A stretch of 30,440 bases of DNA, from assembly GCA_964430365.1 (NCBI GenBank), contig CAYSEU010000002.1, forward strand, positions 1-30,440, given 5' to 3'. The translations under genes and the position numbers were made by a program. Source of the DNA: an uncultured Candidatus Saccharibacteria bacterium. GTDB lineage: Bacteria > Patescibacteriota > Dojkabacteria > SC72. The notes beneath the pieces were generated by a model. The model was given only the letters and a program-made list of their open reading frames with translations. It was not told where the DNA came from and did not search any database. Below, piece after piece: positions 13,983 to 23,948 of the stretch (the stretch's first letter is position 1; every line of letters starts with the position of its first letter).

Positions 13983-15395
13983 TTACAACATATGCTTAGC
14001 TTCATCCAACAATTTCTCTTTTGTATTCATTAAAGGATCCTCAATAACTATATCTAGTAATCTTTTTAATATACTTCCCATCTGAGGACCAGGTTTAACA
14101 CCAATACTTTGTAAATCCTCTCCCTTAATATCTAAGTCCGTAACCTTTAATACCATATCCTGTGCTCTTACCCTAGAAATATGTCTCTGTAACTCAGTAA
14201 TTTCCTCTGGTTGAAAAGGTGAATTAGGATTAGATGTAGCATCCGCTATTCTTAATTTAAAAAGGTCTTCAACATTCTCTTCCCCTACCCTATTTAAAAA
14301 TCTTCTAACAGCAGAATCACTCCACTGACTTAAAGAAATCTCTCCCTCTTTCTTACTTTCTAGTTGAGAATGAGGATAGTAGAACATATGGTTGCGAACC
14401 AATAGCTTAGTTCTCTCTATCTCCGATTTAGAAAACTTTAAACGCTTCATAATATCCTCAACCATTCCCATACCTACAACATCATGACCATAGAAATGAC
14501 CATTACCCATATCTGTTCTAGGTTTAGCAATATCATGTAGTAATGCAGCTAATTTAACAGAATCTTCGGCAAAATCACATGTTCTTAAACTATGTGTATA
14601 TACATCGTGAGCATGAAAGAGCTTCTGTTCAACACCATATCCCTCCAGTAACTCAGGAAGGAAGATATTTAACAGTCCTGTTTGTCTCATTAGCTCTATC
14701 CCCTTAGAAGGCTTAGGAGAATTTAAAAGTAATTTCATAAATTCGTCCCTAATTCTTTCCATAGATACCTGTTTCGCTATAGGTAAACTTTGCTTAATAG
14801 CATTGAAAGTCTCTCCCTCTATTTCAAAATCTAACTGAGAGGCTAATCTACAAGCCTTAAAAGCCCTTAAACCATCCTCTTTGAATCTTTCAATTGGTGT
14901 ACCTACAGCCCTAATTAATTTCATATTAATATCTGTAATACCACTAAAAGGATCATGTATATCCCACTCTCTTTCTACCTCTTCTCCATCTAAAAGGTCA
15001 GAAGAAAGATCCAGTGCCATGGCATTAATTGTGAAATCTCTCCTTCCTAAATCCTTATCCAAATCATTTACAAACTCTACCTTACTAGGCCATCTACCAT
15101 CTATATACTCCGCTTCACTTCTAAAAGTAGTAACCTCTACCTCTCTATTCTCACCATCAATATCTTCTACTAGAGCTATTACAGTGCCAAACTTTGCCCC
15201 AGTAGAAACAGCTTTAGGAAAAAGTTCTAACATCTCATCTGGAAGCGCATTAGTAGCTAAATCAAAATCATGGGGCTTTTTACCCATAACGATATCTCTA
15301 ATTGCTCCCCCAACAAGATATACATCATATCCTTCTTTAGAAAGTATTCTTGCTACCTTCTGTACATATTTGGGAATTGTAAACTTTATTTTCAT
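13983..15395 (-). CDS. cca: Class II tRNA nucleotidyltransferase (CCA-adding enzyme) with HD domain
   Basis: VGGAIRD...DFDLAT, EYIDGRWP flexible loop, RRDFTINA, EDGLR, HD domain (HDVYTH...LLHDIAKP). Start has an AAGGAG Shine-Dalgarno and an ATGA overlap with the upstream stop. Confidence 0.9.
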   Translation of the reverse strand: MKIKFTIPKYVQKVARILSKEGYDVYLVGGAIRDIVMGKKPHDFDLATNALPDEMLELFPKAVSTGAKFGTVIALVEDIDGENREVEVTTFRSEAEYIDGRWPSKVEFVNDLDKDLGRRDFTINAMALDLSSDLLDGEEVEREWDIHDPFSGITDINMKLIRAVGTPIERFKEDGLRAFKACRLASQLDFEIEGETFNAIKQSLPIAKQVSMERIRDEFMKLLLNSPKPSKGIELMRQTGLLNIFLPELLEGYGVEQKLFHAHDVYTHSLRTCDFAEDSVKLAALLHDIAKPRTDMGNGHFYGHDVVGMGMVEDIMKRLKFSKSEIERTKLLVRNHMFYYPHSQLESKKEGEISLSQWSDSAVRRFLNRVGEENVEDLFKLRIADATSNPNSPFQPEEITELQRHISRVRAQDMVLKVTDLDIKGEDLQSIGVKPGPQMGSILKRLLDIVIEDPLMNTKEKLLDEAKHML

Positions 15396-16567
15396 TTTAT
15401 TAATCTCCTTAATAGATAGTACCAAAGTAGAGGGAATACAACAAGAAAAGGAAACATATTAATACTTGTTTGGGGTAATTTTTTAATACCTAGAACTTCC
15501 CCACCACTCTCTTCTACCTCTATAAATACATCCTCCTGAGCTGTATCTTCCTCAATCTCTTCTAATATAATCTCTCCACTGTACAACGTATACGGTATTC
15601 TTGTAACACAGAAACTATCCATATGTGGCTTAACCCTTGAACCAATATATGATAGATATTCACTATCCTTTTCTCTTACACCCGCAACTATTACAGACTC
15701 TCCAACATAGTTAGATTCCATATGTTCACCTTTCACTGCACACTGTTGATTTTCGTTAGGATCATATATCCCTGCATACCCTAAATTTAAACTCTCCCCT
15801 ACCTCTAACTCATACTCATATATATATTCTTCGTTAGGATTAAAATCTCTTACTAACGAATACTGATTATGAGTAAAGACAGTATCTTTTAATGGAATAT
15901 CTGAATCGTTTCTTACATATACCCTTACTAAGACGGATTCCTCATTCCTTTGTGCTTCCCACTTTATAAACTGAAGGGCAGGTCTAACATATACCCTATC
16001 TAGTATCATTCCTCCATCAAATCCCCCTCCATTCTTAACTACTCCTACACCTGGATATGTCTTTACTATCCCATCTCTTGGATAGTTGTAGATTATATAT
16101 TTAATAGGGATACTCTCATACTCTCCATCTATATACAAAAGCTCTCTTAAATCTCCATTAGTAATATCCTGCTTGGAAAGTAATACCTTCAAGGAAGTAA
16201 CATTTATATCCTCCCCTACCCTATTCTCCGACCAATATATGAAATCTAAAGATGAGTATGGTGGAAGAGCAACCCTATCATACACATTCCAATTTCTAAC
16301 TAATCCATACCTCCAATCATCATCTGTTACATCTGAAATATTAATATGTGAAAGTATCCAACTACTACTAGTGCCTGAAACTTTAGATATGTCATACTCA
16401 ACACAGTTAGAACACTTTTCACTTTCTAAAAGATCTCCAATACCATATCCTAATGTATCAAAATACCTATTGTATGTAATATCTCCATCATTAGAGAAGT
16501 AAGAGTCTGCGAAAACAGTATTTATACATAAAAAGAGTAAAACAAAACAAAGTAAGATCTTTCTCAT
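15392..16567 (-). CDS. Secreted hypothetical protein with C-terminal LPxT-type sorting-like tail
   Basis: Signal peptide MRKILL...TVFA; acidic linker; EVLG..KLPQTS, then a hydrophobic stretch and RRLIK. Confidence 0.65.
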   Translation of the reverse strand: MRKILLCFVLLFLCINTVFADSYFSNDGDITYNRYFDTLGYGIGDLLESEKCSNCVEYDISKVSGTSSSWILSHINISDVTDDDWRYGLVRNWNVYDRVALPPYSSLDFIYWSENRVGEDINVTSLKVLLSKQDITNGDLRELLYIDGEYESIPIKYIIYNYPRDGIVKTYPGVGVVKNGGGFDGGMILDRVYVRPALQFIKWEAQRNEESVLVRVYVRNDSDIPLKDTVFTHNQYSLVRDFNPNEEYIYEYELEVGESLNLGYAGIYDPNENQQCAVKGEHMESNYVGESVIVAGVREKDSEYLSYIGSRVKPHMDSFCVTRIPYTLYSGEIILEEIEEDTAQEDVFIEVEESGGEVLGIKKLPQTSINMFPFLVVFPLLWYYLLRRLIK

Positions 16568-17520: not shown

Positions 17521-17805
17521 AATTCTGTCCATCAAGGGTCTGCCCTAGCCCTATCCCCATTCAGATTATTAACCATCTACAAATTCCACAATCTCAAGAA
17601 AACAAACCCAACCTTTATACCTAGCCAAAATCAACAAGATGGTAAAAAATAGTTTGTATTTTTGGTCGAAGAAACGCATAAAGGTTGTACCAAATATTGT
17701 TATAACAGTCTTTGTACTAGAAAAAGAGGGACAGATCTAGGACAAACCTCCTCTACTCTAATTTATTGATAACAGTATCTATACATGATAATTTATATAT
17801 TAGAG

Positions 17806-18417
17806 ATGAGATTAAAAGCACCTGCCCCATTGGGTGAAAGTGAAACAAAAAAACAGTCCTCTATCAATCAATCTACCCAGGTGTATCAAAATAACGAAAT
17901 AAAACAGAATATACTGCCCCCTACAACCCAAATAAACCTTAAATGGTTAAAACTTCCTAAAATAAATATACCTTGGTTAAAATTACCAAAGCTTAATATC
18001 CCCTCACAAAAAAAGAGAATGATAACAGAAATATCACTAATAGCAGTTCCCTCTCTTTTACTATTAATACTTACAATAATGATAATATCTTTCGTTAAAT
18101 CAGAACCATATAGAATGACAAGGGAATTCTTGGAGAAAATTGATAATGGAAATACCGTTGGAGCATATGATATGACTACTGATGCGTATAAATCTGCTAA
18201 GAGTTTAAAAGATTTTAAAGAGATAGTAAACAAACTAAACTCTGTAGATATATCCCACCCAGAAGAGAAAGATAGATATATAGAAGAAATACCTGGCATG
18301 GGACAGTATGCTCATGTAAAGTATAAAATCTCAGGATATTATGTTGATATTACTGTATTCAACGATAAAATAGATTGGGGGATACACTCTGTTACACTAT
18401 CTCTTATCAATCAGTAA
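17806..18417 (+). CDS. Single-pass membrane hypothetical protein with a small extracytoplasmic alpha/beta (NTF2-like?) domain
   Basis: Low-complexity N-terminus, one TM helix (ISLIAVPSLLLLILTIMIISF), then REFLEKIDNGNTVGAYD. ATG 17806 is preferred over 17785 because TTGATA-N17-TAATTT lies at 17766-17794. Confidence 0.6.
   Translation: MRLKAPAPLGESETKKQSSINQSTQVYQNNEIKQNILPPTTQINLKWLKLPKINIPWLKLPKLNIPSQKKRMITEISLIAVPSLLLLILTIMIISFVKSEPYRMTREFLEKIDNGNTVGAYDMTTDAYKSAKSLKDFKEIVNKLNSVDISHPEEKDRYIEEIPGMGQYAHVKYKISGYYVDITVFNDKIDWGIHSVTLSLINQ
17944..18003 (+). repeat. Imperfect 30-nt tandem repeat encoding WLKLPKINIP / WLKLPKLNIP
   Basis: tggttaaaacttcctaaaataaatatacct / tggttaaaattaccaaagcttaatatcccc. 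Confidence 0.75.
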
Positions 18418-19493
18418 TTAAGAGATATAGCCCTCTCTTTATAGAAGTTTTCCAATCCCAAAGTTATTAACCTATCTATTACCTTAGAATACGGCATACC
18501 ACTCTCTTCCCACAATTTCGGAAACATACTAATGGATGTAAATCCAGGGATAGTATTTACCTCATTAACAAATACTCTACCATCTTTTAATAGGAAGAAA
18601 TCTACTCTGGCAAATCCTTCACATCCTAATACTTCATATGCTTTTCTTGCCATAAACCTTATCTCATCACTTTTCTCTTTATCTATATCTGCAGGGATAA
18701 TAATCTTGGCACCATCCTTTTTAATATATTTAGCCTCATATGAATAGTATTCATCATTAGGAATTATTTCTCCTAAACATGAAGCCTTAGGTACCTTATT
18801 ACCTATTACACCACACTCTATCTCCCTACCTTCGATAAGTTCTTCTATTAAAACCTTCTTACCATATTTAAAAGCTTTTTTAATATTAACTGTCAAAGTT
18901 ACAGAGTTATTAATCTTACTAGTACCAATAGAAGACCCTGAATCTGCCGGTTTAATGAAAGCTTTTGTACCAAACTTGAAAAGTATCTCATCATTATTAA
19001 CCCTCGTAATATTAGAATATGCTATATAGTCTACAATAGGAATACCTGCATCTCGCAGTAATCTCTTTGTTACATCCTTATCCATACATATTGCAGAACT
19101 CAATACAGAAGAACCCACGAATGGGACATTTGCTATCCTTAATAACCCTTGTATAGAGCCATCTTCTCCATATGTACCATGTAAGACAGGAAATACAATA
19201 TCCACTATTTCTTTTTTTGAAGGGTTAGTAATATTGTATATCTCACCATTAGATTGAGGTAAGAATATTACTCTATCCGTAGTAGTTCGAATTGGTCGAG
19301 AAGCGCTTTTATTTTCTAAAAAATATTTAATGTCTTGTAAAAACCATTCCCCCGTCTTAGTAATACCTATTAGAACAATATCATATTTATCCTTATCAAT
19401 AGCTCTAACAACATTTCTAGCAGATTCTAAAGACACAGAATGTTCTGCAGATTTTCCACCGTATAGTATTGCAACTTTTATCTTCTTTGTCAT
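18411..19493 (-). CDS. ddl: D-alanine--D-alanine ligase (DdlA-like)
   Basis: YGGKSAEHSVS, FPVLHGTYGEDG, MDKDVTK, FIKPADSGSSIG, YSYEAKY, EVNTIPGFT. The true start is ATG 19493 (AAGGA SD); the longer ORF runs through the tRNA. Confidence 0.93.
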   Translation of the reverse strand: MTKKIKVAILYGGKSAEHSVSLESARNVVRAIDKDKYDIVLIGITKTGEWFLQDIKYFLENKSASRPIRTTTDRVIFLPQSNGEIYNITNPSKKEIVDIVFPVLHGTYGEDGSIQGLLRIANVPFVGSSVLSSAICMDKDVTKRLLRDAGIPIVDYIAYSNITRVNNDEILFKFGTKAFIKPADSGSSIGTSKINNSVTLTVNIKKAFKYGKKVLIEELIEGREIECGVIGNKVPKASCLGEIIPNDEYYSYEAKYIKKDGAKIIIPADIDKEKSDEIRFMARKAYEVLGCEGFARVDFFLLKDGRVFVNEVNTIPGFTSISMFPKLWEESGMPYSKVIDRLITLGLENFYKERAISLNY

Positions 19494-19519
19494 ATTGAAA
19501 ATATCCTTATATTTAATGA

Positions 19520-19606
19520 CGGAGAGAGTGGGATTCGAACCCACGGTACGGAAACCCGTACAACGGTTTTCAAGACCGTCACTTTCGACCACTCAGTCAT
19601 CTCTCC
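19520..19606 (-). tRNA. tRNA-Ser (anticodon UGA), no encoded CCA
   Basis: Acceptor stem GGAGAGA/TCTCTCC, D-arm ACT..AGT, anticodon stem ACGGT-CTTGAAA-ACCGT, long variable arm GTACGG-GTTT-CCGTAC, T-arm GTGGG-TTCGAAT-CCCAC, discriminator G followed by TCA. Confidence 0.97.
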
Positions 19607-19616
19607 ATTGCCACAA

Positions 19617-19625
19617 ATTATATCA
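19617..19625 (-). promoter_or_regulatory. Extended -10 promoter for tRNA-Ser (and probably ddl)
   Basis: TGA-TATAAT 10 nt upstream of the tRNA 5' end. Confidence 0.65.
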
Positions 19626-19647
19626 TACTCATCTCTCATTTCCTTTA

Positions 19648-19676
19648 TTGACTAAACCGTATATCTTACATATCAT
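19648..19676 (+). promoter_or_regulatory. sigma70 promoter of the surface-protein cluster, leaderless geometry
   Basis: TTGACT (19648-53), 17-nt spacer, TATCAT (19671-76), 7 nt, ATG 19684. Confidence 0.7.
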
Positions 19677-19683
19677 CATATAT

Positions 19684-20877
19684 ATGCCCAAAATATTAAA
19701 AATGGTTTTTACAATATATATATGTATATTACCTACCCTTCTTTTTGCTGCAGAATTAGATTCTACTAATTACAAAATAGTGGGTGCTACTACCAAAGGA
19801 GGATCTATACTTGAGACAGCAAGTGGAGATTACTCTGCCCTACTTGAAGTAGGAAGAATATCAAATAATCCAAGAAATTACTCTAACAGTTATAAAATGC
19901 TAACAAGTCCAGAGCAAGCATTCCTGCCTGCAGTACCCGAAGTATCATGCTTTGAAACTACTACTTCAGGATCTTCTAGCTGTACTACCGGACCAACAGA
20001 GCTATCTACAGGAGGTATGGTAGCAATATGTGGACCTAGTGGTTGCTATGATAAAGCAAGGTTTGAAATTGATACTAATGGTAACCCAATAGATACCCTT
20101 TACGCTGTAATGATATCTACTGACAATTTTGTATCCGATATTAGATACGTAGATGGTTCATCCCTCTGGCCAGAGAGTATAAGTACACATAACCTAAGTG
20201 ATTTCTTAACAAAGACAGATTGGGAAATACCAGATTTTAATATACAAGGCCTTCAAACAGCTACCACCTACTATATTAGGATATTGGCTTTACATGGTGA
20301 CTTTACTCAAACAGAACAAGGTCCCATTGCTAGTGCAACTACTTCAGCAGGATCTGTATTTTTTGATATAGATATTGATGATGAGACCGGAATAACTACA
20401 GAGACCGTATCTCCATATACAATTTCTTTTACAGGAGCATATGAATTAATTGGAGGAACTGCTCCTACTACAGCTCAAAACAGAATCTGGATAGATGGAG
20501 CAACGAACTCAGAGGGAGGATTTGCAATAATTGTAAGAGGAGTAAATGGAGGTTTAAAGAGTGATACTACTGGACAAACAATAGTATCAGCTACTGCCGA
20601 TTTAAATACTGCTGCAGATGGTTTTGGAATACAAAGCGAGTATATAGATTATGATACTTATCCATATTTAGGATCTATTACAGCTACTACAGATTACAGT
20701 GGAACAGGAAACTATGTAGGAATAGTTGGAACTACTGCCACCAAGGTTTATGAATCAGAGTTACCTGTATTTAATGGAAGAATGGCGTTAAAGGTAATAG
20801 CAAAACCAGGTATGGATAAGGTTGCTGCTACTGACTATCAGGAGACCATATATTTTGTATTAATTCCTAGATTTTAA
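19684..20877 (+). CDS. Secreted multidomain beta-rich protein (FN3-like domain plus WxL/pilin-like C-terminal domain)
   Basis: Signal peptide MPKILK...TLLFA; FN3-like segment GLQTATTYYIRILA; ends YQETIYFVLIPRF; no TM anchor. The upstream part of the computed ORF (19330-19683) is spurious. Confidence 0.6.
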   Translation: MPKILKMVFTIYICILPTLLFAAELDSTNYKIVGATTKGGSILETASGDYSALLEVGRISNNPRNYSNSYKMLTSPEQAFLPAVPEVSCFETTTSGSSSCTTGPTELSTGGMVAICGPSGCYDKARFEIDTNGNPIDTLYAVMISTDNFVSDIRYVDGSSLWPESISTHNLSDFLTKTDWEIPDFNIQGLQTATTYYIRILALHGDFTQTEQGPIASATTSAGSVFFDIDIDDETGITTETVSPYTISFTGAYELIGGTAPTTAQNRIWIDGATNSEGGFAIIVRGVNGGLKSDTTGQTIVSATADLNTAADGFGIQSEYIDYDTYPYLGSITATTDYSGTGNYVGIVGTTATKVYESELPVFNGRMALKVIAKPGMDKVAATDYQETIYFVLIPRF

Positions 20878-20880
20878 CTA

Positions 20881-20909
20881 TTGACACCATGCTTAAGAGA
20901 ATGTAAATT
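20881..20909 (+). promoter_or_regulatory. Near-consensus internal sigma70 promoter upstream of the 372-aa secreted protein
   Basis: TTGACA (20881-86), 17-nt spacer, TAAATT (20904-09). Confidence 0.7.
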
Positions 20910-20956
20910 GTATTATAGAAAATAAATATGAACTCTAATTTTTTAATCTGCCCAAT

Positions 20957-22075
20957 GTGAAGAGTCTGAAAACCAGTTTGAAGATAGTAGTCCCAACCCT
21001 ATTTTTAGTATTCTCTACGGCCTTCTTTATAGTGTTCTCTGCACAGGCAGGTACATTAGCTGCTGTATATATATTCATGAGTAGATTAAAGGCAGGTTTA
21101 GATGGAACAGGTCCTAACACAGTACAATTTATACTCGCCATTGATACAGCAACAACTATTCCTACAGCAGGTACAATTAAAATAGAGTTTCCAGATGATG
21201 AAGACGCTACATGGTGTAGAACAGCTGGAGCTTTAACTGTAGCTGGAGTTACAGCATCTGCGGTAGATTTAGCAGGAGGAAACTGGGATATTGATAGCGC
21301 ACTACCAACATCTGGTGTACTTAGTGCTGCATGTTCACAAGGTGGCATTGGTACTGTAGACACTATCACTATCTCTAATGTTGGTGCATTAACTGCAGGT
21401 ACTACATATGGAGTACAGATTTCAAATAGCGTTGGAGTCATAGGTACTAATGGAACAACGGGAGAACACGAACTTACAATTACCGCTGCTTCTGGAGCAA
21501 CTATGGATTCAAAATCATTCAAGGTATATCTTTTAGGTGATGACGCTGTCGTAATTACTGCAACAGTATCTGATATGCCAACTGTTGTTTGTTCTATTAG
21601 TACAAATACTGTAAATCTTGGTACCTTATACCCAGGTGGTGCATATGCAACTGGAACTCATACGATTAGTACTTCCACAACCTCAAGTGGTTACTACTGG
21701 GCTGTATATGGAACAGGAGATAGTTCAACAGATGCTGGTTTGTATAAATCTACGGTTACTACACATTTGATTGCTTCCGGTGCAACAGCTACACTTGATC
21801 TTACTAATGCAACAATCTCTGGATTTGGTTTAACACTTTCAGATCCTGACTCAACAGATCCTGCAACTGTAGCTACAAACTTTGTAAATACAACAGCTGG
21901 TACATTCGGAACAATAGATAGATTGTACTCTGGTGCTAAATTAGTACTATCACAATCTGGTACACAAGGCTCAGCAGAAAACTCTACTGTTACATATGGT
22001 GCGAAAGCAAGCTCCTCGGCTCCAGCAGGTTCATACCAGGAGACTGTATATTGGATATGTGGTGGTTACTACTAG
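20957..22075 (+). CDS. Secreted Thr/Ala/Gly/Ser-rich two-domain protein with WxL/pilin-like C-terminal domain (candidate major surface subunit)
   Basis: GTG start; signal peptide ending AQA; four Cys; internal VVITATV strand; C-terminus APAGSYQETVYWICGGYY; no TM anchor. Confidence 0.6.
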   Translation: MKSLKTSLKIVVPTLFLVFSTAFFIVFSAQAGTLAAVYIFMSRLKAGLDGTGPNTVQFILAIDTATTIPTAGTIKIEFPDDEDATWCRTAGALTVAGVTASAVDLAGGNWDIDSALPTSGVLSAACSQGGIGTVDTITISNVGALTAGTTYGVQISNSVGVIGTNGTTGEHELTITAASGATMDSKSFKVYLLGDDAVVITATVSDMPTVVCSISTNTVNLGTLYPGGAYATGTHTISTSTTSSGYYWAVYGTGDSSTDAGLYKSTVTTHLIASGATATLDLTNATISGFGLTLSDPDSTDPATVATNFVNTTAGTFGTIDRLYSGAKLVLSQSGTQGSAENSTVTYGAKASSSAPAGSYQETVYWICGGYY

Positions 22076-22093
22076 TAATTGATATACTTGAAC

Positions 22094-23068
22094 ATGAGAT
22101 TTACTCGATTCATGAAATATAACGGAATATTATTACTGCCCGTAATAATACTTCTCCTGAGTGTTCACCCTCTTTTTGCTCAAACCTCTCTATCAATAGG
22201 CGTTGCTCCTACTTCTAAAGTTTTAAAACTAAGCCCAGGAGAAACCTACTCTGATGAAATAGTATATTGGAATCTATCTCAAGAAGCAGGTACCTACCGT
22301 GTCTTTATTAGTGGCTTCCAACAGATAGAGAATCAACCAGGTACCGCTGTCATTTTAACAGAAGAAGAAGATGCCCTTGTCGATTACTCTGCTTCAAAAT
22401 GGGTTACAGTATCCAAAGATATTCTAGAATTAGAACCTAATAAAAATATTAAATTACAATACACTATTAAAGTACCTACAGACACTACGAATGGAGAGTT
22501 TAATGTAGAGATATTTCTAATTTCTGAAAATGCTTACCAGCAACAAGGTACAGCAGCATTTACCAATCTTGCTGCAGGAACCCCTATACTAATACAAATT
22601 GGAGATGACTATGTTCAGAATGCAGAATTACTCAGGTTTATTGCAGACAAAAAAGTATATGAAAAGATAAATGTAGACTTCTTAACCACTATTAAAAACC
22701 TTGGTGACATGCATATAACCCCTACAGGAGAGATATTAATAGAAAATATCTTTGGACAAGAGGTAGCTAGAATCCCCTTTAATAAGAATGCTAAAAGCCT
22801 TCTTAGAGACACATTAGGAAACTATACCGATAATTGGACTCAATCAGGATACTTATCTCCTAACAAGGCTATAGCAGTTGGCCCTATGAAAGCCAAATTA
22901 ATGGTTACATACAGAAGCTTTCAACCCGGTTTTGCAGTCTTAGGTAGTGAAGCAACCTTCTGGATAATTCCATGGAAGATTATTCTTGCTATCCTTGCTG
23001 CTATTCTTCTTGTTATAATAGTTAGAATAAATAAGAAGAAAATAAATAGAAAGAATGAAATTTCTTAA
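22094..23068 (+). CDS. Membrane-anchored DUF916/DUF3324-like (WxL-interacting or chaperone-like) protein 1
   Basis: Signal peptide; GVAPTSKVLKLSPGETY...N; second domain IKNLGDMHITPTGEILIENIFG; FWIIPW followed by TM and a basic tail. The start could be 22079, 22094 or 22112. Confidence 0.6.
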   Translation: MRFTRFMKYNGILLLPVIILLLSVHPLFAQTSLSIGVAPTSKVLKLSPGETYSDEIVYWNLSQEAGTYRVFISGFQQIENQPGTAVILTEEEDALVDYSASKWVTVSKDILELEPNKNIKLQYTIKVPTDTTNGEFNVEIFLISENAYQQQGTAAFTNLAAGTPILIQIGDDYVQNAELLRFIADKKVYEKINVDFLTTIKNLGDMHITPTGEILIENIFGQEVARIPFNKNAKSLLRDTLGNYTDNWTQSGYLSPNKAIAVGPMKAKLMVTYRSFQPGFAVLGSEATFWIIPWKIILAILAAILLVIIVRINKKKINRKNEIS

Positions 23069-23948
23069 AATCCTTATTACAGCAGCCTTTATATATACCT
23101 TGCTTGGTATTCCTCTACTCTATGCAAGTAGTAGTATTGATCCTGCAATTAGAAGAATTACACTTGCTCAAGGTGAAAGAATGTTTGGTAGTGTTGTATT
23201 TAAAAATGGAGAAAACAAAGATATACAAGTCTTACTTACACCATATACTTACAACCCCAAAACAGATGAGATTACAGAAGATAAGAGGAATATCTTTCTT
23301 AAAGTAGATACTGATAGTATAAAAGTAAAAGCCAATTCTTCATACAATATTAAATATGAGATACTACCCCTTAGTAACTTACCAAATGGAAGCTACTTTA
23401 ATATACTAGCTATTACACCAGTTACTGATTCTAAGAACGTAAAAATAAATCTAAGTATATCTCAATTAATAATATTAGATATAGTAGACCCCAATGACCA
23501 AGTAAGGGGTATTACAACTACGCAGTACTCTACACAAATAGAAGTTAAAAGAAGAGGAATCCCCTTTATACTACCCACTATACTTAAATACAGTATAAAG
23601 AATAATTCTAACTACCTTCTTACACCCCAAGGAAGAATGGATGTATTCAATGAGAGAAATAGCTACCAACCAACATACCTTTACCTCAATGAGGAGAAAA
23701 AAGATATATACCCAGGAGAGACATTAGAAGGAGAGATTAAAATACCTACTTGGTATATACAAGATCTCTTTATTAAAAGAGTTGTAAAAGCACAAGTATA
23801 TAATGGTGTAGATAATAATGCTCAAGATATAGAGATAGAGATTAATAATTACATATTTGAATTAATTGCCTTACTAATAGTAATAATAATAGGTATACTA
23901 CTTTCCAAATCTATAGTAGAAGATTTTTCTAAAAAGAGAAAAACTTAA
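23055..23948 (+). CDS. Membrane-anchored DUF916/DUF3324-like protein 2 (paralog of the upstream gene)
   Basis: Signal peptide; IDPAIRRITLAQGE...FKN; IKNNSNYLLTPQGRMDVFN; C-terminal TM and basic tail; overlaps the upstream gene by 14 nt. Confidence 0.55.
   Translation: MKFLKILITAAFIYTLLGIPLLYASSSIDPAIRRITLAQGERMFGSVVFKNGENKDIQVLLTPYTYNPKTDEITEDKRNIFLKVDTDSIKVKANSSYNIKYEILPLSNLPNGSYFNILAITPVTDSKNVKINLSISQLIILDIVDPNDQVRGITTTQYSTQIEVKRRGIPFILPTILKYSIKNNSNYLLTPQGRMDVFNERNSYQPTYLYLNEEKKDIYPGETLEGEIKIPTWYIQDLFIKRVVKAQVYNGVDNNAQDIEIEINNYIFELIALLIVIIIGILLSKSIVEDFSKKRKT

Follow-up and report, generated by a model that had tools for sequence, protein, structure and literature searches.

The DNA considered here, hereafter the window, is a stretch of 30,440 nucleotides (positions 1 to 30,440 of the forward strand of contig CAYSEU010000002.1, assembly GCA_964430365.1) from a Dojkabacteria bacterium, a member of the candidate phyla radiation (CPR). 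The source genome amounts to 760 kb and is 99.1% complete, and the G+C content of the window is low (about 0.30-0.40). Four co-directional genes lie head to tail at 19684..23948 on the + strand, to which all coordinates below refer unless marked otherwise; they encode proteins of 397, 372, 329, and 297 amino acids (aa), and the successive genes are separated by 79 bases, by 3 bases and, in the last case, by an overlap of 14 bases. It is proposed here that they probably form a stripped-down and strongly diverged operon for a strand-exchange pilus of the Pam type, which was recently described in Candidatus Mycosynbacter amalyticus and other CPR bacteria (Troman et al., bioRxiv 2026, PMC13278184).

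The first gene (19684..20877) encodes a secreted protein, a candidate tip or minor subunit according to its open reading frame (ORF), its AlphaFold2 (AF2) model, a match to the FN3 domain and a match to the PamT model. The second (20957..22075), which starts with GTG, encodes the putative Pam-type pilin and shaft subunit, recognized from its ORF, its AF2 model, profile alignments with hhalign and the family model NF058581. The third (22079..23068) and the fourth (23055..23948, including the 14-base overlap) encode two putative membrane-anchored chaperones: the 329-aa protein resembles PamC and PamD (hhalign and PF06030), and the 297-aa protein appears to be its paralogue (hhalign). The same four-gene order was found in most of 76 related loci, in which the genes for the 372-, 397-, 329-, and 297-aa proteins were present 73, 66, 66, and 62 times, respectively; many of the absences fall at contig ends. 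Homologues of the operon genes carry the public names Candidatus Dojkabacteria or candidate division WS6. The operon is also present, at 55-70% identity, in many metagenome-assembled genome (MAG) records titled "uncultured Candidatus Saccharibacteria" (L015-L017 and others), titles that look like coarse automatic names.

The 372-aa protein is composed of a signal peptide (residues 1-31), a nine-strand N-terminal domain (N-domain, residues 32-193), a linker, and a C-terminal domain (C-domain, residues 208-372). The first-pass annotation of this DNA had claimed that a strand inside this protein is donated to a neighboring copy and that the protein polymerizes in this way as a fiber shaft. Both motifs that it quoted are present: DDAVVITATVSDMP corresponds to residues 195-208 and PAGSYQETVYW to residues 356-366. 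The linker with its putative donor strand, DDAVVITATVSDM, occupies residues 195-207 (21539..21577), the core of the strand being V198-V204 (21548..21568), and the pilin-like acceptor domain follows at residues 208-372 (21578..22072). The segment had previously been drawn from position 21541; the feature itself is real, but this coordinate is one base out of frame, as 21541 is the third base of codon D195, the frame that opens there runs into stops, and the next codon starts at 21542.

Conservation was examined in an alignment of the protein with 29 homologues that are 56-90% identical, hand-picked among the 120 matches listed of 263. Residues D196, V198, A202, V204, P208, C212, C368, C87, and C126 are invariant in all 30 sequences, and position 200 is always V or I; judged from this alignment, the conservation of the motif in the family exceeds chance. 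The cysteine of VVCS, which had been suggested to form a stapling disulfide with that of the terminal WICG, is C212 (21590..21592), and its proposed partner is C368 (22058..22060). Because both are invariant, a C212-C368 disulfide is plausible.

The comparison with Pam pili gives these features a functional context. According to the available text of the Pam preprint, cryo-electron microscopy (cryo-EM) of PamA and PamB, two pilins of a cultured CPR bacterium, revealed an N-domain of nine strands, one linker strand and a truncated immunoglobulin (Ig)-like C-domain, and each C-domain holds the linker of the adjacent pilin (PMC13278184). The NCBIfam model of the Pam pilin C-domain (NF058581, CPR_Pam_pilin_C, curated cut-off 55 bits) aligned with residues 215-372 of the 372-aa protein (E 0.0031, 17.6 bits when searched as a protein; 19.9 bits in the genome search). 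Among 301 genomes of the phylum, 91 matched this model at E<=0.001 and 26 exceeded the cut-off, one unpublished genome (G154) being counted in these tallies. As a reference set of bona fide Pam pilins, eight full-length proteins above the cut-off were used, each with its adjoining gene, from 8 of 12 loci; the four loci left out comprised two PamT matches, one truncated giant protein and one unclear case. The 372-aa family aligned with these eight pilins over its full length (hhalign 98.1%, E 9.2e-14, 322 columns), and the linker and C-domain alone still gave 94.4% (E 9e-8), the positive control, Pam pilin C-domain versus PamT C-domain, reaching 99.9%. The linkers themselves can be set side by side, for example VQVTATVDPSITF in bona fide Pam pilins and VVITATVSDMPTVVC in the 372-aa protein, where VVITATVSDMP-TVVCSIS matches VQVTATVDP-SITFSIS. 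Profile comparison thus makes the 372-aa protein a remote homologue of the CPR Pam pilins.

Structure prediction points in the same direction. The AF2 monomer model, built from the 30-row alignment, has a predicted local distance difference test score (pLDDT) of 78.2, with nine strands between residues 36 and 193 and an all-beta C-domain; linker residues 197-208 are unstructured, with a pLDDT below 50. In VIA-align, the C-domain resembled CfaE (2hb0_A; Z 8.0, root-mean-square deviation (rmsd) 3.3, 127 residues aligned), the Csu pilin (Z 7.9, rmsd 2.8, 120 aligned), CfaB (3f84_B; Z 6.1, rmsd 3.0, 116 aligned), and the pilin domains of FimA, FimH, and PapG (Z 6.5-6.8), and by their titles 15 of the 23 rows that aligned to this domain alone are chaperone-usher pilus subunits. 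When two copies of residues 32-372 were predicted together, the score was 0.54 (runs 0.58, 0.54, and 0.42) and the best control gave 0.00; the runs shared at least 76% of their contacts, with a partner pLDDT of at least 86. In the calibration of this tool, the mark was reached by 20 of 30 proteins solved as pairs and by 1 of 23 solved as single chains, counts that are only a rough guide here because a custom alignment was supplied. The predicted interface sets the C-domain of copy 1 against the linker (195-206) and N-domain (34-44, 102-105, 169-172, and 186-193) of copy 2, and V198, I200, and A202 touch residues 220-223, 231, 233, 345, and 349 of the other copy. The two-copy model thus predicts trans insertion of the linker strand and additional contacts made by the N-domain, an arrangement like that reported for Pam pili. 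The contrast between AlphaFold monomer and homo-oligomer that had been put forward as the check on strand donation was clear in these predictions, the linker being disordered in the monomer and inserted in the C-domain of the neighbor in the two-copy model.

Several observations nevertheless weigh against this interpretation. The 17.6 to 19.9 bits obtained with NF058581 lie below its cut-off of 55 bits, and only 5 of the 30 family members match that model at E<=0.1 (best 1.2e-4). A hidden Markov model (HMM) of the eight bona fide Pam pilins finds nothing in the source genome at E<=1, and in a profile search no PDB chain matches the 372-aa family by sequence. The VIA-align Z scores of 6-8 are middling, in a range where the tool issues a warning for values below 8, and Foldseek, queried with the whole 372-aa model, returned generic two-Ig proteins only, with a TM score of about 0.25. 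Moreover, the complex score, obtained with a custom alignment, may only reflect likeness to known strand-exchange pili. Taken together, the homology to Pam pilins, the conservation and the two-copy model, all of them computed, support the first-pass claim of an internal strand passed on to the neighbor, and we consider it likely, with good confidence, that the 372-aa protein is a shaft pilin that polymerizes by strand exchange. That claim had been worded as "self-complemented or domain-swapped"; the models favor exchange in trans and disfavor self-complementation.

The two downstream genes strengthen the parallel with Pam loci. The 329-aa protein has a signal peptide, two beta domains, a C-terminal transmembrane helix (about 22973..23032), and a basic tail, and the 297-aa protein similarly has a signal peptide and a C-terminal transmembrane helix (about 23856..23918) followed by basic residues. 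The Pam operon encodes two chaperones anchored by a C-terminal helix, PamC and PamD, together with a proposed linker-less tip, PamT, and a proposed membrane anchor, PamR (PMC13278184, available text). The two families of the present locus align with each other (hhalign 97.9%, E 4.2e-13), and against the eight chaperones that adjoin the bona fide Pam pilins the 329-aa family reached 100% (E 8.9e-44, 276 columns) and the 297-aa family 99.2% (E 3.1e-19). The order of the genes, pilin then chaperone, is the same at bona fide Pam loci. On these alignments, the 329- and 297-aa proteins are paralogues and homologous to the transmembrane-anchored proteins of Pam loci, and we hold with high confidence that they are chaperones. 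PDB profile searches with the two families returned nothing relevant.

The 329-aa family is also related to a domain known from another surface system. For the N-terminal domain of the 329-aa protein, PF06030 (DUF916, WxL-interacting protein) gives 18.1 bits, where its cut-off is 27.3; at E<=0.1, it matches 28 of 30 family members. Among 1.84 billion representatives, a profile search recovered 6638 relatives of this family at E<=0.001; in a Pfam scan of the best 150, from which 18 proteins longer than 500 aa were dropped, 26 of the 132 scanned relatives matched PF06030 at E<=5e-6, which is about the gathering score (best 8.5e-12). Seven of the eight Pam-locus chaperones match the same model at E<=0.05. 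No member of the 297-aa family matched PF06030 (0 of 30), and the 297-aa protein of this locus is without a Pfam match. The DUF3324 model (PF11797) had no match in the Pfam scans of the 329-aa family and its relatives.

At the end of domain 1 of the 329-aa protein lies a conserved strand, GTPILIQIG (residues 167-175; 22577..22603), in which G167 and L171 are invariant in the family, G175 is nearly so and hydrophobic residues alternate. An equivalent segment with the consensus SVGTLILLxVxG is present in the Pam-locus chaperones, and, by analogy with the chaperone strands described for the Pam and WxL pili (PMC13278184; 10.64898/2026.10.17.759780), GTPILIQIG is a candidate for the strand lent to the pilin groove. 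As for the limits of the gene, the longest ORF of the 329-aa protein starts with TTG at 22079, and the ESM Atlas sequence begins at residue 12 (ATG 22112). Because several homologues also start near there, the ATG at 22112 is the probable true start, which would give a protein of ~318 aa.

The position of the 397-aa protein in such a fiber is less certain. It consists of a signal peptide (residues ~1-23), a PamT-like segment (24-76), an FN3 domain (78-225), an FFDIDI strand, a polar linker, and a C-domain (244-397). Its AF2 model has a pLDDT of 75.6; residues 17-76 lie below 50 and are unplaced, and the C-domain is at about 90. The FN3-like unit recognized in the first-pass annotation was recovered in model residues 75-225 by VIA-align (Z up to 9.4, rmsd 2.6 A over 100 residues), with 46 chains at Z>=8. 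The sequence TSAGSVFFDID, which had been quoted as the junction, is present at residues 220-230. It had been read as a C-domain that follows the FN3 unit directly, which is not the case: an invariant amphipathic strand, VFFDIDID (residues 225-232; 20356..20379; identified by conservation and as a predicted strand), and an 11-residue polar and variable segment, DETGITTETVS (residues 233-243; 20380..20412; identified by entropy and hydropathy), intervene. The companion statement, that no obvious VxxTATV strand is found in this protein, agrees with the sequence, since the donor position holds the polar, variable segment. In that segment, column entropies are 1.3-2.4 bits, except for G236 and E240, and hydropathy is mostly negative. 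F227, D228, D230, and I231 are invariant in all 30 sequences of the 397-aa family alignment, and the FFDIDI strand, predicted at 227-232 with a pLDDT of about 60-70, lies past the FN3 fold (matches to that fold stop at 220-227). It could be the last strand of the N-domain, a cis-complementing strand or a donor strand. Two low-probability hhalign runs, against the 372-aa family and against the Pam pilins, placed segment 233-243 opposite the donor strand or linker and FFDIDI opposite the last strand of the N-domain. The predicted strands of the C-domains of the 397- and 372-aa proteins are collinear in order and spacing.

A position at the tip is suggested by the N-terminus of the protein. The NCBIfam model of PamT (NF058579, curated cut-off 240 bits) matches residues 7-62 (profile positions 6-64; E 0.0027, 15.9 bits), as it does 6 of the 30 family members at E<=0.1 (best E 9.3e-6), and 28 of 61 genomes of the class match it at E<=0.01, mostly over profile positions 5-80 and in open frames of ~400-440 aa. 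Compared with six PamT proteins above the cut-off, residues 18-116 gave 66% in hhalign (E 5.5e-5). In addition, 11 of 120 homologues among the matches listed, and the proteins of 5 of 66 loci, carry a lectin-type LamG domain set into the FN3 domain between residues 131 and 134; the three homologues that were scanned gave E values of 4e-18 to 5e-21. Against a tip stand the PamT score itself, which is 15.9 bits where the cut-off is 240 and is confined to residues 7-62, and the C-domain, which hhalign finds only weakly similar to its counterpart in the 372-aa protein (4.2% and 18.8%) and not detectably similar to those of PamT (0.1%) and the Pam pilins (3.6%); BLASTP between the 397- and 372-aa proteins gave E 0.17. 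PamT is characterized as a single-domain, truncated Ig-like protein without a linker strand, a description that the extra FN3 domain of the 397-aa protein does not fit, and it may be the invariant FFDIDI strand that acts as a donor. The proposal that the 397-aa protein serves as the tip is thus supported by the PamT-like N-terminus, the polar segment at the donor position and the lectin variants, and weakened by the divergent C-domain and an invariant strand that it leaves unexplained; we lean only slightly toward it.

Three further loci (L095, L096, and L097), in genomes of the same class, encode proteins of 470-473 aa in which a PamT-like N-terminal segment and the first C-domain strands are followed by a LamG-type insert, called by eye from its motif, and by the last pilin strands. 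Each of them adjoins a gene for a transmembrane-anchored, chaperone-like protein of 291-294 aa. The C-domain of the 397-aa protein gave 11.8% in hhalign against these three proteins, which, from their sequences, look like a second way to put a lectin on a tip pilin.

The strongest competitor to a tip is that the 397-aa protein is a second fiber subunit, intercalating or alternating with the 372-aa protein like PamA with PamB, or an adaptor, with FFDIDI (225-232) as its donor strand. This strand is invariant and perfectly amphipathic, with V225, F227, I229, and I231 on one face and acidic residues on the other; the available text of the Pam preprint ranks the donated linker with the best-conserved regions and has two pilins in one filament (PMC13278184), and the legend of Figure 4F of a preprint on the WxL pilus has an adhesin predicted within the fiber and not capping it (Sleutel et al., bioRxiv 2026, 10.64898/2026.10.17.759780). 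However, eleven residues (233-243) separate FFDIDI from the proline of the C-domain, whereas the corresponding spacer is three residues long in the 372-aa protein and at most one residue long in Pam pilins, the two low-probability profile alignments set this strand opposite the last strand of the N-domain, and the N-terminal segment resembles PamT, the proposed tip. We therefore regard a second subunit or adaptor as possible and rather doubtful.

From the observed sequence features, conservation, homologies, and gene order, and from the modeled folds and trans insertion, we infer how the chaperones would act, in which direction the fiber would grow and where its tip would lie. The 372-aa protein would be exported by Sec with its C-terminal Ig-like domain one strand short, and before assembly a membrane-anchored chaperone (the 329-aa protein, the 297-aa protein or both) would occupy the groove with one of its strands. 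On assembly, the incoming subunit would use its linker strand V198-V204 to displace the chaperone and fill the groove; this strand is probably unable to fold back on its own domain because only three residues precede the proline that opens it. Repeated exchange would produce a linear, usher-independent head-to-tail fiber that grows at the membrane, the N-domain contributing to each contact between subunits. The 397-aa protein would most likely start the fiber as its distal subunit by accepting the linker strand of the first 372-aa protein, and would display the FN3 domain and, in some relatives, the LamG lectin domain. If formed, the C212-C368 disulfide would lie within the acceptor domain.

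It could also be supposed that the locus encodes a non-filamentous surface complex of the WxL/Csc type, in which the two membrane proteins anchor the two secreted proteins and no polymer is formed. The PF06030 matches in 28 of 30 members of the 329-aa family and, at about the gathering score, in 26 of 132 relatives are consistent with this idea, and DUF916/DUF3324 proteins are described as binding WxL proteins (abstract of PMC10599100). Even so, according to the WxL preprint the WxL cluster itself builds a strand-exchange pilus in which the DUF916 protein acts as chaperone (10.64898/2026.10.17.759780), cryo-EM has shown filaments of pilins to which the 372-aa protein is homologous (PMC13278184), the two-copy model sets the linker strand in trans, and the WxL domain (PF13731) was found neither in the two subunits, which give no Pfam match of any kind at E<=1, nor in the genome at E<=1, a search in which the Lactococcus control was positive. 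Such a complex is unlikely. It is very improbable that VVITATV completes its own C-domain in cis and that the 372-aa protein is a closed, two-domain monomeric adhesin: the first-pass annotation allowed self-complementation and structure predictors often close such grooves in cis, but the monomer model left the groove unclosed with residues 197-208 below a pLDDT of 50, only three residues join the strand to P208, and the trans arrangement reached a score of 0.54, where the best control gave 0.00.

Around the operon, a tRNA-Ser(TGA) gene lies directly upstream of the gene for the 397-aa protein (19518..19607, - strand). A 515-aa ORF at 19330..20877 is an artifact because it reads through this tRNA, and the ATG at 19684 agrees with the homologues. 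A promoter and terminator scan found 10 promoter-like sites, fewer than the 18.5 found in shuffles; sites precede both subunit genes, and the scan carries no weight because the count is below that of the shuffles. Further upstream, a 391-aa protein (15392..16567, - strand) has a signal peptide and a C-terminal hydrophobic helix and is without a family match; in 22 of the 76 related loci, a counterpart with 24-84% identity precedes the operon. A 210-aa protein (17785..18417), kept in 15 of the 76 loci and likewise without a family match, has one hydrophobic segment and a short internal repeat (LKWLKLPKINIP / WLKLPKLNIP). Across the genome, profile searches detected one pilus locus only, the one described here, plus, on another contig, one weak chaperone-like match (G000, contig C64:430-831, - strand; E 7e-4, 17.4 bits) that contains two internal stop codons and may be a decayed second copy or a chance match.

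Pam pili are thought to be the means by which ultra-small CPR bacteria reach their host cells, and they are so far known from one cultured species and from sequence surveys. The present locus extends the Pam design to the Dojkabacteria, where operons of this kind may stay labeled as hypothetical because the curated models miss their cut-offs. With two subunits and two chaperones, it is small enough for simple reconstitution.

The strand-exchange mechanism as such was already published in 2026, and the Dojkabacteria locus is a diverged, minimal variant of it. As in the Pam pilus described in the available text of the preprint, the 372-aa pilin combines a signal peptide with an N-domain of nine strands, one conserved linker strand, and a C-domain that is Ig-like and truncated (here according to the AF2 model), the linker is donated to the neighbor (here as predicted by the two-copy model), and two membrane-anchored chaperone paralogues lie directly downstream, with no usher, in a CPR lineage. 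Unlike the Pam operon, this locus has four genes only and its proteins score far below the NCBIfam cut-offs. Profile searches of the 99.1%-complete genome found no separate gene of the PamT, PamE or second-pilin type, PamR not being among the searches, and the candidate tip combines a PamT-like N-terminal segment with an FN3 domain (and LamG in some relatives) and a diverged C-domain. The Pam preprint mentions neither Dojkabacteria nor WS6 in its text or supplement text, Figure 3 aside (PMC13278184).

Chaperone-usher pili offer a second comparison. The predicted fold of the 372-aa C-domain resembles a donor-strand-complemented pilin domain of the class 5 CFA/I (CfaB/CfaE) or archaic Csu type, and the C-terminal strand motif G-x-Y-x-x-T-V and the logic of strand exchange are shared with CFA/I and Csu pili. 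These systems differ from the present locus, whose fiber would not have to cross an outer membrane, whose donor strand is internal, and whose chaperone is anchored in the membrane. A classical chaperone-usher system was rejected, as neither PF00577 nor PF00345 was found at E<=0.01 in the 99.1%-complete genome and the E. coli controls were positive. Similarly, a sortase pilus was rejected: an LPxTG signal is lacking at the end of both subunits, and indeed of all four operon proteins, although four sortase genes are present in the genome, all above the Pfam cut-off and all away from the pilus locus (contigs C17, C18, C37, and C42).

The closest parallel outside the CPR is the WxL (Elr) pilus of Enterococcus faecalis and other Bacilli (Sleutel et al., bioRxiv 2026, 10.64898/2026.10.17.759780). 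In the available text of that preprint, ElrE (DUF916/DUF3324) is the membrane-anchored chaperone of this strand-exchange pilus in Enterococcus, and the pilus is reported only in Bacillota, from a survey of one RefSeq proteome per genus. Both systems would build an usher-less strand-exchange fiber in a cell without an outer membrane; in both, the chaperone carries a C-terminal membrane helix, the DUF916 model that covers the N-domain of the WxL chaperone also matches that of the 329-aa family (for the present protein below the cut-off), and the donor strand stands directly before the acceptor domain with a small residue at its center. In contrast to the WxL pilus, the Dojkabacteria subunits have no WxL domain, the 329-aa family has no DUF3324 match, and the 372-aa protein carries its donor strand internally, after an additional N-domain, and not at the mature N-terminus. 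Each of the two preprints, in its available text, calls its own system confined to its lineage and does not mention the other, and our literature search found no publication linking Pam and WxL pili. We tentatively suggest, at somewhat less than even chances, that the Pam pili of CPR bacteria and the WxL (Elr) pili of Bacillota are two branches of one old usher-less family with a DUF916-type chaperone and a donor strand before an incomplete Ig-like domain. If this is so, the Dojkabacteria operon would be its minimal four-gene form, with a tip that carries an FN3 or lectin payload, and the DUF916 likeness of the 329-aa chaperone offers a testable link from the pili of CPR bacteria to the WxL pili of enterococci and lactic acid bacteria.

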